Assembly: GCA_000092065.1 (NCBI GenBank)
Contig: CP000590.1
DNA from: Ostreococcus lucimarinus
Lineage: Eukaryota
Length of the DNA: 64,000 bases
Strand: one strand, 5' to 3'
The notes under the pieces are model-generated. The model had not been told where the DNA came from. It searched no databases and saw only the letters and a list, made by a program, of their open reading frames with translations. Numbering within the stretch: position 1 is the first letter of the stretch; every line of letters begins with the position of its first letter. The translations under genes were made by a program, and so were the position numbers. This document shows, in pieces, positions 24,145 to 30,503 of the stretch.

Positions 24145-24866
24145 CTACTCGAACGGTGCGGGAACGGTGTTGGCGTCGGTCTCCTTCTGACGCCGGCGCG
24201 ACCAGCGAGAGACGTCTTCGCCCGCGAGCGTGTCCGTCGCCGCCTGCCCGCGCTCGAACCGCTCGCGGCGCGTCGCCGCCAACTTCTCGTCCGTGTCCAC
24301 AAACTTGCGCATGAGCCAGTGCAACGCGATCGTCGGCGGGTTGCGAATGTTCGGCACCAATCCTCGAACGTTTCGTGCGGGCACCCAATCCGACAACCCG
24401 TTCCCCCAAACCAACGTGTGTTCGTCCACGACGCCGTTCACCCAGCACTGTCGCATCGTGTTCAACGGCGCCGGTCCACGGCACTTACCCACGCGATCGC
24501 GGTAAAACCACACGTTATTATCGTTCGCTGTTTTCGGTCGAAAATTCACGAAACCGTCGTCAGTCGCGCGTTCGTCGTCGTTCGCTTCGTCTCGCCGTCG
24601 CCGTCGACCCTACGCCGCGAGAAGGTCCACCGGTTTCCTCGCTTTCGCGCGCCCGTCGTCGCGCGCGTTCGCGCGCGCGCGCTTCCGCGGTGTCGAACGC
24701 GCGCTCGCGCGTCGCGCGCGGGCGCGGCGCGACGCGCACCGTCCGTCGCGCGAAGATCGTTCCGCGCTTCAAACTTGTACGGCCCGAGCTTGTCTCGCCA
24801 CGACTGCAGGTACTTTCTGCGCGATTCCGTCGCGTCCGTGGGGCTGTCTTCGCCGTAGAAGCTCAT
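24145..24866 (-). CDS. GYF-domain protein; exons complement(24614..24866) and complement(24145..24527), intron 24528..24613
   Basis: GYF core WFYRDRVGKCRGPAPLNTMRQCWVNGVVDEHTLVWG. The track ORF begins on GTG with no ATG. Removing an 86-nt GTAGGG...GACTGAC...AACAG intron joins it in frame to an upstream ATG at 24866 (MSFYGEDSP...). Confidence 0.5.
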
Positions 24867-25069
24867 GGTGCGCGCCTGGGGGGGGCGGGCGGGGGCGAGC
24901 GCGTCGGCGCCGCGCGCGCGAGTGCGGACGGGGCGCGCCCGCCGTGAGGGTCTAGGTTTTTTTCGTCTCGAGTCGCGCGAGACGTTTCGCGCGCGCGAGA
25001 CGCCCGCGGGCGCGTGATTTACAAGAGAGCGAGCGCTAATAAATGATGCTAAATGCACGCTCGGTGCGA

Positions 25070-26248
25070 TCAACGCCAGCGCGAGCGGGCGATGTTGAGG
25101 ATGATTTGCGCGACGGCGTCGTACACCACGGGGCGGTAGTGGACGCCGTCGACGGAGCACTCCGCGCCGCACAGGGCGGTGATTTCGCGCGCGCGCACGC
25201 GCACCGCCGGACCGGCGGGGAGGACGATCCTCGTTGACTTTTGGTCGTCTCGTATTTTGGCGTACCGCGCCAGATTCGTGTCGGTAAATTTGACGCGTTT
25301 GTCCTCGGCGACGAGCTTGTCGCGAATCACGAGCGCGGCGTCGATCCACACAATCACCACCTTTGGATGCGCCGCCTCGATCGTGCGCACGCGCGCACCG
25401 AGCGCGGCCATCGTCGTCTTGTACCTAGACACCGATTCGTCGTGCAAAACGTGCCACAGCGCCGTGGATATGACGATCAAATCCGGCGCGTCGCGCTCGC
25501 CGTACGCGTCCAGCGCGTCGACGACGTCCGACGCGTACGGCGCCCACGTAAACGTCGCCTTCGCCCCCCCGACCAAGTCGTGCGCCCAATCGCGATGTTT
25601 CTCCCCATCCTTCGTCGTCAAGCTCACGTCGCTCCACGCATCGCTCGTCGCCGCGACGAATCCCCCGTACGCGTTTCTCGCGCCCGAGTCGCCCAAAAAC
25701 GCCGCGCGCCGCCCTTCGATCAATTTCCCCACCCTGTTCCCCCGCGCCGTCGCCGCCAACCGCCCGAACCCGCACGTCTCCCCCACGTCCTCGCGCATGA
25801 CCCACGCCAGGGCGTTTTCTCGCCCCCTTCGTCCTCTCTTTCCTCCGCGTCCCCGTCCCCGCGTCTCCGCGTCGTCCTCGTCGCCGCACCCCGTCCTCGC
25901 CAGCGTCCACGCGCGCGTCGCGCACGCGCTCGCGCCGCGCGTCCACGTCCCTCGCCACGCGTGCGTCGCGCACCCGTCGACGTCGACCGCGAACGCGCCG
26001 ACGTCGACGTCGTCGTCGCGCGTCGTCGTCGTCGTCCCCGTCGTCGCGTCTCGCGGCGCGTCGCGCGTCGTCGCCGCGCGCGCCGCGCACGCGACCGCCG
26101 CGCACGCGAGCGCGACGACCGTCGCGACGCGCGCCTTCGTCGCCGTCGCCGTCGGCGCGCGCGCGTCGCCGCGCGCGCGCATGCGCGCCGCGCTCTGCCG
26201 CGCGCCGCCGCGCGTCCCGGCACATCGTCGCGCGCGACGGCGCGCCAT
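25070..26248 (-). CDS. Type II membrane SGNH/PC-esterase-like hydrolase (CAS1 N-terminal-domain-like)
   Basis: ATG verified at 26248. N-terminal signal-anchor VATVVALACAAVACAA. GDS motif (FLGDSGARN). Distal D-x-x-H (SVDGVHY). Confidence 0.5.
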   Translation of the reverse strand: MARRRARRCAGTRGGARQSAARMRARGDARAPTATATKARVATVVALACAAVACAARAATTRDAPRDATTGTTTTTRDDDVDVGAFAVDVDGCATHAWRGTWTRGASACATRAWTLARTGCGDEDDAETRGRGRGGKRGRRGRENALAWVMREDVGETCGFGRLAATARGNRVGKLIEGRRAAFLGDSGARNAYGGFVAATSDAWSDVSLTTKDGEKHRDWAHDLVGGAKATFTWAPYASDVVDALDAYGERDAPDLIVISTALWHVLHDESVSRYKTTMAALGARVRTIEAAHPKVVIVWIDAALVIRDKLVAEDKRVKFTDTNLARYAKIRDDQKSTRIVLPAGPAVRVRAREITALCGAECSVDGVHYRPVVYDAVAQIILNIARSRWR

Positions 26249-26776
26249 GGCGTCCGCGCGCGGCGTCGTGCTCGGGTGCGCGCGAATCGCGCGCGTCTCG
26301 CGCGCGCGACTGACGACGGCGCGCAGCGCGTACAGAGAGCTCGTGTGGCTCGCGCGACGCGCGCGGGCGGAGGAGCGGCGAAGACTCGAGGACGTCGTCG
26401 CGGACGTCGCGCGGCGCGCGCGCGCGGCGCGCGGGGCGAACGCGACGGCGGCGGACGTCGCGGACGGCGTGCGACGATTGGTGGGGACGGTGGGGTACGC
26501 GCGAGCGATGACGTCGAGGGTCGGGCGACGACGGTTCGAGTGGGACGAGGACGCGCGCGAGGCGACGCGCGTCGTGGAGCGAACGGGAGGAAAGAGCGGA
26601 CGCGAACGCGTCGCGAACGGCGTGCTGAGTCGAGAAGACGCGTGGGCGTATCACAATAGGTTGATCGATCGACAACACTTCGGGAGACGGTTGAAAAAGT
26701 TTAAGCCGGAACCGCTGTAGACGGCGGGATGCAATAAATACATGAAATGGGACGCGCTCGGCGGCGACGGAGCGCT

Positions 26777-28396
26777 TTAATCTTTTCTCGTCGCGCTGGC
26801 GAGCTCGTGCCTTCGCTGACGCATGCTCTTTTGCAATTCTGATCCGACGTCTGGATCCGAGGCGATCGCCCACGCCATCTCGCGTCGACCCATGACCAGA
26901 CATTGCACTTCGGTTTGGGCGATGACGTCGGCGTTGCGTCGACCGCCGATCCATTTCTTGGCGACCATTCTCGCGCTCACCCACGATTTCAGTGTGAATT
27001 TCTCCCCTTTTTTTCTCTTGGGCGGGCCTTTGGCGAGGACTTCCGCAATGCGTTTATCAATCATCGCGCGCGACGATGAGGCTGACTTGCTTTTCGCAAT
27101 CAACCGATCGCCGAGAGCCATCTCTCCGATGAATTCGCCCGGCTCGCGCTTGGCCACCTGCGCGCCCTGGTCGCGCAAGATGTTCCGGTCCGCGTCCACC
27201 GGACTGACGACAATTTTCACACTGCCGGACTTAATGAGAAACACTTCATCGGTCGCGCGTGCGCCCTGATGAATGAGGATATCACCGGCTTCGTACTTTC
27301 TCAACGGAAGCTTCATGCCCTTCGCGAAGTCGCGAAGCTTGGATTTAATGCGCAGAGGCGCCGGTCGCACGCTCTCCACTTGTTGCAACCATGGATGCTT
27401 GAGGCAGTTTGCCGGGGTCAAACGATGGACCGGTTTGTGCGCCAGACACGACATGACGAACTCGCGAGCCGTTTCACTCACGGAGTCCCACTCGAAGCAA
27501 TCAAAACCAAAATCGCGTTGGACGACGCGTCCGTACTTCAACGCGCTCTTCCACAAGCTCCTCGGCATGGCGCCCGTGAGCAACACGTACGTGATGACAC
27601 CGAGAGACCACATATCGATCGCACCACCGTACGACTTTTGCTCCACGACCTCCGGCGCGGCGAACACGGGCGTACCCACGGGCGCGGTATCGATCCCTCG
27701 GCTGTGCGGCAACGACCCCAACCCTTCAGGGTTTTGGCACCGTCTCGCCAACCCGAAATCCGCGATCACGACGCTCGCGAGATCATCGTTCGACCGCAGC
27801 AATAAGTTCTCCAGCTTCAAATCTCGATGTAACACAAAATTTTTATGCATGTAATCGATCCCTTGCACCGTGCGCTGCACCACCACCTTCGCCTCCGCCT
27901 CGGTGTATCGCTCGCTCTTCATGCGCAAAATCGCGTCCAACACCGCCCCCCCGTGCAGGACCTCCGTCACGACGTACACCTTATCGCCGTACCAGTGGCA
28001 CTCTTCGAGTCTCAACATCGTCGGCGACGTCAACACGCGCAGAATATCGATCTCACTCGTGACCTCGTTCACGCTCATGCGTTCCTTCCCATGTTCGTCC
28101 TTGTCCGCGTCCGCGTCCGCGTCGCCCTCCTTGACGCTGATGATCTTCATCGCGTACGTCTTCGCGCTCTGACGATGGCGCACTTTGCGCACGACGCTGA
28201 AACCGCCCGCACCGAGCGACTCGAGGTCGTCGTAGCGCTCCATCGGGTCGCGCTCCGCGCGCTTCAGCTTCACCGGCGGGACGCTCGGCATCGTCTCGCG
28301 CGTCGCCGGCGCGCCGCCGTCGCGCGTGCGCGCGCTGCCGCGCTTTCGAGGCTTCGGCGACGCATCGCCGTCGGGTTTGGAGGCGACGCAACCCAT
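26777..28396 (-). CDS. CaMK-like Ser/Thr protein kinase with C-terminal cyclic-nucleotide-binding (CNB) domain; N-terminal MGCxxS acylation motif
   Basis: Internal ATG verified at 28396 (MGCVASK). Kinase motifs GAGGFSVV, HRDLKLENLL, DFGLAR, APE. CNB motifs GDILIHQGARATDEVFLIKSGSV and GEFIGEMAL...R.A follow the kinase. The Arg-rich track extension upstream of 28396 is rejected. Confidence 0.8.
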   Translation of the reverse strand: MGCVASKPDGDASPKPRKRGSARTRDGGAPATRETMPSVPPVKLKRAERDPMERYDDLESLGAGGFSVVRKVRHRQSAKTYAMKIISVKEGDADADADKDEHGKERMSVNEVTSEIDILRVLTSPTMLRLEECHWYGDKVYVVTEVLHGGAVLDAILRMKSERYTEAEAKVVVQRTVQGIDYMHKNFVLHRDLKLENLLLRSNDDLASVVIADFGLARRCQNPEGLGSLPHSRGIDTAPVGTPVFAAPEVVEQKSYGGAIDMWSLGVITYVLLTGAMPRSLWKSALKYGRVVQRDFGFDCFEWDSVSETAREFVMSCLAHKPVHRLTPANCLKHPWLQQVESVRPAPLRIKSKLRDFAKGMKLPLRKYEAGDILIHQGARATDEVFLIKSGSVKIVVSPVDADRNILRDQGAQVAKREPGEFIGEMALGDRLIAKSKSASSSRAMIDKRIAEVLAKGPPKRKKGEKFTLKSWVSARMVAKKWIGGRRNADVIAQTEVQCLVMGRREMAWAIASDPDVGSELQKSMRQRRHELASATRKD

Positions 28397-28580
28397 GACG
28401 GCGGTCGCGACGCGGTGTGGACGCGCGACCGGTCGAAAGACCCGAAGCCCGCGAAGGTGCCGCGAAGGTGCCGCGAAGGCTGGAACGCGGCGAAGGCGAG
28501 GCGAGACGAAAGCGACGCGCGATGGGCGTCGCACGGCGGTGGTGCGCGCGATTTGAGATGAAATGCATCTCTGGGTTACA

Positions 28581-30503
28581 CTATTTCGCGCGTTTGAGCA
28601 CCAGAGCGACGTAGGTGACGGCGACGTTGAGCGCGGCGACGCCGAGCTGAGATTTGCACGCTCTGCCGGCGTGCCCGCGAACGGGCAAACCCAAGCCTTC
28701 GAGGACGTCCTCGCCGTTTCTCGGGGGGACGCCCTCGTTGAATCGACGCGCGAGGACCTTTCGAACGCCGCGGGATTTGGCGAGCTTTTTGCTCTTGGCG
28801 TCGGTGTCTTCTTTCTCGAAGACCAAGCCCTCAAATTCCGAGCACAAGACGCCTTCAAAGGCGTGGCGAATGAGCGAGAGCTTGGAAAGCGGCGCTAAAG
28901 AATCGGGAATTTCTGCGAATGCGCCGGATGCATCGCCGAGCATGATGTTAAGTACCATTACGCACGGTCCGATGGCGAGAGCGACGTCAGCGCTCGGACT
29001 CAGGGCGCTTATGGAGAGCCCCAAAGACGACGCCGCGGCGGATTGCAACGCGAGCGACGTCAGAAACATCTTTCGTCCAGACTTGTTTAAACCTACCATG
29101 GGCGCCATGACACCTCCGAAAACGACTGGAAACACCATATCAATCGGAGTTTCTATCAAAAGCTTCGATAGAAAGTACGGGCCAGGGCTGTAGCCACCGC
29201 TTTGGCGCGCCATCTCGCGTCGCACCGTGGCGCGCTCGCGTGGAAACCCGTTCAAGCTCTTCACCAATGCGAGCATGGAGGTGTTAATGCACGCCTGCAT
29301 GAGTACCGCGACTCGTCGTTTCACACTACGAGGTCCGAGTCCAAGCTGGAAGTTACATCCGCCAAACATCGCGGCCAGACCGACTGAGGCCACCATGCGG
29401 ACGCCGTTCACCCACATCTCTCGCTTGGCTTGTCGCCAAGCACGACCGGCGAGTAATCTAAATTGCTTAAGCGGATCACAGGCTTTCTTTCGCACGGCTT
29501 TCGAAGTCGAAGTCGATTCAGGCGCCCGTGTCACATCTGCCGCTCTCGGTGCCGTTGTTTTGCTATGCTTTGCCCACTCGTCAACGATGCGTTCTATTCG
29601 CGCGCGGCTCTTGGCCTCGGCGTCGTCGCTCCCGACGCCGTCGCCGACGTCGACGCTCACGAGATCAATCAAAAACTCGGCCGGATTAAAATGCTCGGGG
29701 CACTCGAAACCGATGCCGCGAAAGTAACTGATGACGTCTTCGCTCGGCCCGTGGTACGCCACACGCGCGCCGCTCGCGAGCAACAACACGTCGTGCACCT
29801 TGGCGAACGAGGCGCTCCTCGGTTGGTGCAGCGTGCACACTACGCACGCGTCTTCGCGTTCCGCGAGCTCGACCAGCTTCTCCACCATCTTATCCGCCTG
29901 AAATGCATCGAGCCCAGACGTCGGCTCGTCCACGAGCACGACTAAACCACCACCCGACTTCGAATCCGTCGTTCCCAGTCCGAGCGTCTCGCTCGCGATG
30001 GCCAACCGCCGCCGCTCGCCTCCTGATATCCCCGCCACCGCCTTCCCTCCGGTATCACCCCCCACGACCGTATCCGCGCACGTCATCAACGACATCTTTC
30101 TCAACGTCGAGTTCACGAGCGCCGCGGCGCTCTCCTGCGTCTCTCCGCGCAGCCGCGCGTCCAACTCGAGCGTCTCTCGCACCGTGAGATTGCTAAAGAA
30201 TTTCGGCTCTTGCTCCACGTAGCTCATCGAAACGTCCTCGTCATCGGCGCCGGTGATGCGTTTCCCATCGTACGTCACGACGCACTCGAGCGAGTCGCCT
30301 CGCTTGACGTCCAGGCGATGGGACAGGGCGTTGAGCAGCGATGTCTTGCCGCAACCGCTCGGGCCGAGAATCGCCAAGACGCGGCCGCTGTTGGCGTGCG
30401 CGGACGTCCCGCGCAGGATTACGCGCGAAGAGGCGTTGTGGCCGTCGGCATCTTTCGTGCGGACGACGTATTCGACGTCGCGCCAAGCCAGGGTGCCACC
30501 CAT
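28581..30503 (-). CDS. ABC transporter G-family half-transporter (White/ABCG-like)
   Basis: ATG verified at 30503. Walker A GPSGCGKTS. ABC signature ISGGERRRL. Walker B LVLVDEPTSGLD. C-terminal six-helix ABC2 membrane domain. Confidence 0.9.
   Translation of the reverse strand: MGGTLAWRDVEYVVRTKDADGHNASSRVILRGTSAHANSGRVLAILGPSGCGKTSLLNALSHRLDVKRGDSLECVVTYDGKRITGADDEDVSMSYVEQEPKFFSNLTVRETLELDARLRGETQESAAALVNSTLRKMSLMTCADTVVGGDTGGKAVAGISGGERRRLAIASETLGLGTTDSKSGGGLVVLVDEPTSGLDAFQADKMVEKLVELAEREDACVVCTLHQPRSASFAKVHDVLLLASGARVAYHGPSEDVISYFRGIGFECPEHFNPAEFLIDLVSVDVGDGVGSDDAEAKSRARIERIVDEWAKHSKTTAPRAADVTRAPESTSTSKAVRKKACDPLKQFRLLAGRAWRQAKREMWVNGVRMVASVGLAAMFGGCNFQLGLGPRSVKRRVAVLMQACINTSMLALVKSLNGFPRERATVRREMARQSGGYSPGPYFLSKLLIETPIDMVFPVVFGGVMAPMVGLNKSGRKMFLTSLALQSAAASSLGLSISALSPSADVALAIGPCVMVLNIMLGDASGAFAEIPDSLAPLSKLSLIRHAFEGVLCSEFEGLVFEKEDTDAKSKKLAKSRGVRKVLARRFNEGVPPRNGEDVLEGLGLPVRGHAGRACKSQLGVAALNVAVTYVALVLKRAK

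Follow-up and report, generated by a model that had tools for sequence, protein, structure and literature searches.

A gene for a protein kinase that carries its own cyclic-nucleotide-binding (CNB) domain lies in a 64,000-nucleotide stretch of contig CP000590.1 from Ostreococcus lucimarinus CCE9901 (the window; coordinates below are positions in it, and all features discussed are on the minus strand). The gene is a single uninterrupted open reading frame (ORF) at 26777-28396, running from an ATG at 28396 to a stop codon at 26777-26779 and comprising 539 codons plus the stop. Its 539-aa product begins with MGCVASK and consists, in one chain, of a lipid-anchor motif, a kinase of the calcium/calmodulin-dependent (CaMK) type, a short conserved junction and a single C-terminal CNB domain. 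From the ORF list, the translation and the alignments, in which the product is colinear with its orthologs over the full length, the coding sequence is complete and needs no intron. All motifs quoted in the original prediction of a kinase-CNB protein at this locus were located in the translation: HRDLKLENLL (aa 190-199), DFGLAR (213-218), GDILIHQGARATDEVFLIKSGSV (371-393) and GEFIGEMAL (420-428). A tblastn search found no second copy of the gene within the 64-kb window.

The gene is present in public databases under automatic names only, and members of the family carry the source annotations 'calcium/calmodulin-dependent protein kinase I' or 'protein serine kinase H'. In the literature, which was covered incompletely, no account was found of a CNB domain at the C-terminus of a CaMK-type kinase. 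Among the protein-collection members listed, the exact 539-aa product is recorded solely from Logan assemblies, while both neighbouring genes carry O. lucimarinus RefSeq accessions; the gene model deposited for the locus may differ, for example in its start.

The kinase-CNB family

Both domains are found together in 182 collected proteins. The kinase N-lobe is complete in 102 of them, and in all 102 the kinase precedes the CNB domain. Searched for in other algae, the architecture was recovered from Ostreococcus, from Micromonas pusilla CCMP1545 (NCBI model MICPUCDRAFT_50468, P0022; 50% identity), from Cymbomonas tetramitiformis and from a transcript-derived MMETSP sequence of Pterosperma (P0282); it is also present in a Micromonas commoda paralog annotated as 'gliding motility related cam kinase' (XP_002508045.1). 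The family comprises three paralogous subfamilies that are about 30% identical overall. Subfamily A, to which the O. lucimarinus protein belongs, has an MGC start and a long insertion in the phosphate-binding cassette of the CNB domain; subfamily B starts with MGS or MGT and has a near-canonical cassette without the insertion; and subfamily C has the insertion together with the motif KNKWVGGRRGADV. Since a subfamily B gene (P0058) and a subfamily C gene (P0064) share one assembly (GCA_977009765.1, loci L005 and L008), single genomes carry several of the paralogs. At the level of sequence, the order of the domains and the N-terminal MG motif are conserved across the three subfamilies in prasinophyte green algae.

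The kinase domain of the O. lucimarinus protein occupies aa 55-337 (27386-28234) and was called by Pfam as Pkinase (PF00069; E 2.8e-57, 194.6 bits). It contains the full catalytic set, namely K84, E115, HRDLKLEN at 190-197, DFG at 213-215 and APE at 247-249, which is invariant in 25 family members. The closest sequences in the PDB are chains of CaMK1G/1D, CaMKII, CDPK1, DAPK and RSK (S6 kinase alpha-3), with E-values of 1e-40 to 1e-34. The best 60 PDB sequence matches are chains of CaMK1, CaMKII, CaMKIV, CDPK, DAPK, CASK, STK17A and RSK, and the best 50 fold matches of the predicted kinase structure are CaMKII, DAPK and CASK, with CaMKII and DAPK at the top. Kinase domains of PKA or PKG are absent from these 60 sequence matches and 50 fold matches. 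An AGC tail has no room in the protein, the CNB domain beginning 27 residues after the kinase. The nearest sequences and the nearest folds both support the CaMK-like catalytic domain that had been predicted, and, judged by sequence and structure model, the kinase belongs to the CaMK group and not to the AGC group.

The start of the protein was examined with regard to the spacer that separates the gene from its upstream neighbour, an ABCG transporter gene. The ATG of MGCVASK is the earliest in frame, and the open frame extends upstream to 28858 without another one. The spacer contains one out-of-frame ATG (28568-28566), located 13 nt after the ABCG stop codon and opening an overlapping 171-aa ORF (28053-28568). 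In a related strain (P0125), an indel in the spacer shifts the frame and puts this spacer ATG in frame. Because of this frame-changing indel, and because the only ATG of the spacer is out of frame, the spacer behaves as non-coding sequence and MGC is the credible start. The start at MGCVASK assumed in the original prediction is further supported by the alignment of nine full-length orthologs, in all of which MGC is invariant and residues 8-45 are variable.

MGCVASK (28376-28396) matches the PROSITE-type myristoylation pattern MG[^EDRKHPFYW]xx[STAGCN][^P], with Gly2 as the consensus position for N-myristoylation and Cys3 as a candidate palmitoylation site; the proposed fit to an acylation consensus thus stands, and it extends to the paralogs. 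The pattern opens 49 proteins of the family, the start having been called too early or too late in the remaining members, and subfamilies B and C as well as more distant members also open with MG followed by a small residue. The following segment, aa 8-50 (28247-28375), is 46% identical to the Ostreococcus ortholog and probably disordered, the predicted local distance difference test score (pLDDT) of AlphaFold2 being below 50 for aa 1-38. Since MG or MGC is kept while the next 40 or so residues vary, the alignments provide strong evidence that selection acts on the extreme N-terminus. We infer that Gly2 is myristoylated, that Cys3 is palmitoylated and that the protein is anchored to a membrane.

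The 27-residue junction between the two domains, aa 338-364 (QQVESVRPAPLRIKSKLRDFAKGMKLP; 27305-27385), is the best conserved of all segments, with 81% identity to the Ostreococcus ortholog. Its residues P345, P347, L348, R349, I350, K351, L354, R355 and D356 are invariant in 16 orthologs. A helix is predicted at 353-360, just ahead of the CNB barrel, and pLDDT is low at 341-351. From its position and conservation, the junction may be an autoinhibitory or coupling segment. Homology to the autoinhibitory junctions of CaMKs and of calcium-dependent protein kinases (CDPKs) was considered and is unsupported; when a longer, 65-residue junction query was used, one CDPK3 chain (9vhu) was matched through the junction (E 0.005). 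A likeness to the plant CDPK junction and to the R-x-x-T286 register of CaMKII is taken as a lead only. The junction contains an R-x-x-S motif, RIKS, at aa 349-352 (27341-27352), whose distance from the HPW motif appears to correspond to that of T286 (RQET), the site of autophosphorylation in CaMKII. M. pusilla has Asn in place of the serine of RIKS, and subfamilies B and C lack the motif.

The CNB domain and its interrupted cassette

Several lines of evidence identified the C-terminal domain. The Pfam family cNMP_binding (PF00027) was called with 48.0 bits (E 1.3e-12), above its gathering cut-off of 27.5, with the match falling in two stretches; like the Pkinase call, it is well outside what chance would give. 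A profile of the region matched Plasmodium and human PKG, PKA regulatory subunits and CAP in the PDB, with E-values of 3e-18 to 1e-12. In an AlphaFold2 model of the domain alone (aa 340-539), the barrel has pLDDT values of 84-97, and Foldseek related this model to CNB-B of PKG-I (4ku8, E 7e-9), to mycobacterial and E. coli CRP and to CNB-B of PKA RI-alpha (E 7e-9 to 1e-7). Sequence profiles and the predicted structure thus agree with the original prediction of a single C-terminal CNB domain, and on this basis the domain is a true CNB fold.

A comparison of the CNB region with 1.84 billion representative proteins by phmmer yielded 81 relatives at E<=1e-3. An upstream kinase is carried by 10 of the 11 relatives that are at least 400 aa long and have E<=1e-5. 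In a search with a CNB profile, scores dropped sharply from the family members to generic bacterial CNB proteins; this homolog search added no further named organisms. Because the relatives are few and the long ones mostly have an upstream kinase, and because of the sharp drop in score, the sensor is a CNB clade of its own that accompanies this kinase.

The feature that the original prediction had overlooked, while recognising the fold, is an insertion of 52 residues (aa 430-481; 26954-27109) that interrupts the phosphate-binding cassette after GEFIGEMALG and before WIGGRRNADVIA (WIGGRR). It is this insertion, lying inside the cassette, that divides the Pfam match in two. The first part of the domain, aa 365-429 (27110-27304; profile positions 2-57, pLDDT 84-94), comprises the first six barrel strands in canonical numbering and the start of the cassette, GEFIGEMAL, with E425. 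The second part, aa 482-515 (26852-26953; pLDDT up to 97), comprises the cassette end WIGGRRNADVIA with R487, N488 and A489, the last two strands and the first C-terminal helix, and aligns to PKG-I CNB-B. The domain ends in a long predicted helix, aa 516-539 (26780-26851), that corresponds to the hinge or lid region of CNB domains and includes R528; the full-length AlphaFold2 model places the helix at aa 515-537. When the insertion was deleted in silico, PF00027 matched at positions 2-88 of its 89 with 61.5 bits, and the shortened domain aligned GEFIGEMALG..GGRRNADVIA to CNB-B of PKG-I (...DVRTANVIA...) and to CAP. The barrel strands flanking the insertion remain in register.

In the structures of PKA, PKG and CAP, the cassette Glu binds the ribose 2'-OH, and the Arg together with the Ala two positions further on binds the cyclic phosphate. 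The alignment to PKG-I and CAP identifies E425 as the cassette Glu, R487 as the cassette Arg and A489 as the conserved Ala. Among 25 diverse family members, no substitution occurs at G420, F422, G424 or W509, and R528 is nearly invariant; E425, R487 and A489 are retained in 90% or more. Published consensus sequences of the cassette are GELALLYNDPRTATVIA for PKG and GELALIYGTPRAATVVA for the PKA regulatory subunit (PMC2246266). N488 is at the position of Thr in PKG, Ala in the PKA regulatory subunit and Ser in CAP. This position, which may bear on nucleotide preference, is mixed in the family: the PKG-like Arg-Thr-Ala is found in Micromonas orthologs (RRTADV), in subfamily B (PRTASV) and in Pterosperma (RRTASV), whereas Ostreococcus has Arg-Asn-Ala. 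In the O. lucimarinus protein, the cassette is neither contiguous nor of the usual length of about 14-17 residues; in subfamily B and in Pterosperma, it has a short extension only.

The insertion consists of two portions that evolve differently, as is seen in a codon-by-codon comparison with the Ostreococcus ortholog at locus L002 (about 70% identity). Residues 430-466 are 44% identical, with differences at the three codon positions of 0.50/0.50/0.64, and appear to evolve almost neutrally. Residues 467-481 (TLKSWVSARMVAKK), which form a basic amphipathic stretch, are 80% identical, with differences of 0.27/0.13/0.47, values that indicate amino-acid constraint. The insertion is in frame in every ortholog. 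Because the frame is kept and the C-terminal portion is constrained, the insertion is, by this comparison, coding sequence, in which a loose linker precedes the conserved basic amphipathic stretch. AlphaFold2 models it as helices with low confidence.

Proposed regulation and its alternatives

We propose that the protein is a kinase anchored to a membrane and gated by cyclic nucleotides, built on the lines of a CDPK, with a kinase, a junction and a sensor in this order, and we put the probability of this reading, in which ligand binding, regulation and acylation are inferred, at a little over one half (roughly 0.55). Myristoylation of Gly2 and palmitoylation of Cys3 would tether the kinase to a membrane. 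At rest, it would be kept off by the junction, the CNB domain or both, in the manner of the regulatory segment that follows the catalytic domain in CaMKs and CDPKs. Binding of cAMP or cGMP at E425 and R487 would then move the cassette helix and the flanking helices and release the kinase. The protein would thus follow the plan of CDPKs, in which the sensor comes after the kinase, and not that of PKG, in which the sensors come before an AGC kinase. The 52-residue insertion, present in subfamily A and in a second subfamily, may add a lineage-specific regulatory surface.

This proposal draws support from the ligand-contact residues, which are kept across subfamilies of about 30% identity, and from the strong conservation of the junction. 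It is also supported by the presence of cyclic-nucleotide signalling in the genus, since Ostreococcus has a PKG with four CNB domains (PMC6628679) and cAMP-dependent control of its cell cycle has been described in a review (PMC13436692). Several observations weigh against it. The insertion has 52 residues where canonical CNB domains have 5-6 and could distort the pocket; the residue after the cassette Arg is Asn in Ostreococcus, instead of the Thr, Ser or Ala of proven binders, and could impair binding; the CNB domain is divergent, as reflected in its small number of phmmer relatives; and a few members (P0069, P0071) have lost both the cassette Glu and the cassette Arg. Furthermore, the AlphaFold2 model of the full-length protein (predicted template modelling score 0.57, linker pLDDT below 50) provides no confident inter-domain geometry, and a family profile of the junction alone, compared with the PDB, matched no kinase and no regulatory segment of a CDPK or CaMK. 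Because of the latter result, the step of autoinhibition rests on the position and conservation of the junction.

The same features of the cassette would also fit a domain that has kept the fold but no longer binds cyclic nucleotides, and that either acts constitutively, in autoinhibition, docking or dimerisation, or binds another small ligand. The split cassette, the Asn at the Thr/Ser/Ala position in Ostreococcus, the divergence of the domain, with its 81 relatives, and the loss of Glu and Arg in P0069 and P0071 all point in this direction, and a precedent is provided by the cAMP-independent PKA of Trypanosoma, whose regulatory subunits bind nucleosides (PMC6440977). However, Glu, Arg, Ala and the three cassette glycines would hardly have been retained over three subfamilies of about 30% identity if no ligand with phosphate and ribose were bound, Arg-Thr-Ala stands in an almost canonical cassette in subfamily B and in the Pterosperma protein, and the barrel strands on either side of the insertion are in register; we therefore regard such a pseudo-CNB domain as unlikely. 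If the domain indeed does not bind nucleotides, the protein would be a CaMK with a degenerate regulatory module. A more conventional kinase, regulated mainly by Ca2+/calmodulin through a site in the junction or in the insertion helix SWVSARMVAKKWIGGRR, with the CNB domain as a secondary modulator in a two-input scheme, appears quite improbable. It would accord with the closeness of the kinase domain to calmodulin-regulated kinases, with the conserved part of the insertion, which is basic, contains many bulky hydrophobic residues and evolves under coding constraint, and with V473, M477 and W482, which by eye fit a 1-5-10 spacing. However, no tool gave a result in favour of calmodulin binding, subfamily B is devoid of the insertion, subfamily C does not preserve the 1-5-10 spacing, the junction profile recovered no CaMK or CDPK regulatory segment, and basic amphipathic helices are common.

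The gene model itself could in principle be an artefact, either of two adjacent genes taken as one or of an unspliced intron read as the cassette insertion. The almost neutral evolution of the variable part of the insertion would fit an intron, and, whereas its two neighbours have NCBI accessions, the listed members for the exact 539-aa sequence all come from Logan assemblies. Nevertheless, two separate genes are contradicted by the single open frame without a stop, by the linker being the most conserved segment and by the fusion in 102 of 102 relatives across genera, which include the M. pusilla NCBI model P0022 and the mRNA-derived Pterosperma sequence; an unspliced intron is contradicted by the frame kept in all orthologs and by the amino-acid constraint on the last 15 residues, that is, the C-terminal third of the insertion. 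The original prediction of one gene and not two is upheld by the same evidence, and an artefact of either kind is scarcely credible. A flagellar function, which had been suggested when the flagellate Micromonas was the only named match, was dropped since O. lucimarinus has no flagellum.

In relation to the known cyclic-nucleotide-dependent kinases, PKG I-III and PKA, the algal protein likewise couples a Ser/Thr kinase to a CNB domain, which has the same fold and the same cassette residues and finds its best fold match in CNB-B of PKG-I; relief of inhibition by a cyclic nucleotide is likely another shared property. The algal kinase differs in belonging to the CaMK group instead of the AGC group and in the position of its sensor, which follows the kinase in all 102 proteins, the reverse of the PKG layout, whereas the CNB domains of PKG and PKA precede the kinase or are located on a separate subunit. 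It also has one CNB domain where PKG has two to four, and its cassette is interrupted by the 52 residues. Given the conventional four-CNB PKG of Ostreococcus (PMC6628679), the protein is not a substitute for that enzyme. In the O. tauri kinome paper, cNMP domains are mentioned only with AGC and AGC-like kinases.

The overall plan is that of the CDPKs (CPKs) of plants, algae and apicomplexans. In both, the N-terminus is variable and opens with an MG(C) acylation motif, a short junction follows the CaMK-group kinase, and a sensor for a second messenger forms the C-terminus; the kinase domain also finds CDPK1 among its closest PDB sequences (E 3e-38). Here the sensor is a CNB barrel, and the Pfam scan called no EF-hand family at E<=1; the likeness is one of plan only, homology to the CDPK junction not being demonstrated for the algal junction. 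A CDPK of a brown alga, SjCDPK13, has been reported to carry two CNB domains as well, and it keeps its EF-hands (PMC12335766). The closest catalytic domains by sequence and fold are those of CaMKI, CaMKII, DAPK and PSKH, which, in contrast, are followed by a calmodulin-binding autoinhibitory helix and in no case by a CNB domain. Human PSKH1 also begins with MGC and is dually acylated. Another combination of CNB and kinase domains in one polypeptide outside PKG is that of the plant PP2C-CNB-kinase proteins (PMC2246266), which differ in having the kinase after the CNB domain and in containing a phosphatase domain. In Dictyostelium, the GbpC kinase has C-terminal CNB domains in the same polypeptide; it differs from the algal protein in being large, in belonging to the Roco proteins and in having two CNB domains and another type of kinase. 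Neither of these has the compact CaMK-junction-CNB plan.

On a broader and more tentative view, to which we would give somewhat less than even odds, prasinophytes evolved a third design of cyclic-nucleotide-dependent kinase independently of PKA and PKG, namely a membrane-anchored kinase of the CaMK/CDPK type with a CNB domain at the position of the Ca2+ sensor, in which the helical cassette insertion, found in two of the three subfamilies, would be a new allosteric or second-input element. If so, the green lineage would gain a direct effector from cyclic nucleotides to phosphorylation at membranes, distinct from its PKG; the CDPK plan of kinase, junction and sensor could accept a wholly different second-messenger sensor; and the cassette insertion would be an unusual site for coupling ligand binding to output. 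The targets of cyclic nucleotides in the green lineage are poorly defined, the known effectors being mainly channels, an algal PKG-like kinase and the plant PP2C-CNB-kinases. The compact CaMK-type kinase, which carries its own CNB sensor and is apparently tethered to membranes, would be a concrete and testable effector; its three paralogous subfamilies are conserved in marine picoeukaryotes that rank among the most abundant. Ostreococcus tauri is genetically tractable, and cAMP has been reported to gate its cell cycle.

Genomic neighbourhood

The upstream neighbour, arranged head to tail with the kinase-CNB gene and outside it, is a White-like ABCG half-transporter gene (28581-30503) with the Pfam domains ABC_tran and ABC2_membrane, whose product exactly matches O. 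lucimarinus XP_001420124.1 ('White protein-like'). The adjacency and orientation given in the original prediction are correct, and its distance of 185 bp is trivially corrected to 184 nt between the ABCG stop codon and the kinase ATG. This intergenic region (28397-28580), in which the promoter and the 5' untranslated region probably lie and which differs by the indel in the related strain, contains a threefold tandem repeat with a period of 11 nt and the core CCTTCGCGG (28449-28479). A further neighbour encodes a D-lactate dehydrogenase that exactly matches XP_001420120.1 of O. lucimarinus CCE9901.

The ABCG and kinase genes are also adjacent in other Ostreococcus-like contigs and in Micromonas pusilla. 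The order ABCG, kinase, 392-aa ORF and GYF-domain gene is common to O. lucimarinus (24145-30503) and M. pusilla CCMP1545 (L001, 3329-12867), where extra genes are inserted in the block. The M. pusilla kinase gene is about 190 nt longer than its coding length and has no straight translation to the protein, which suggests an intron. A special functional link between the kinase and the ABCG transporter was considered and dropped, since the downstream 392-aa ORF and GYF-domain gene are equally conserved nearby, and the adjacency looks like ordinary conserved microsynteny. Drosophila White reportedly transports cGMP, which, beside a putative cyclic-nucleotide-regulated kinase, we take as a curious coincidence. 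The 392-aa ORF (25070-26248) had no match in Pfam. The corresponding syntenic position in M. pusilla holds a recognisable homolog (140 aa aligned, 36% identity, E 3e-20), and the ORF would seem to encode a conserved, uncharacterised protein of the Mamiellales.

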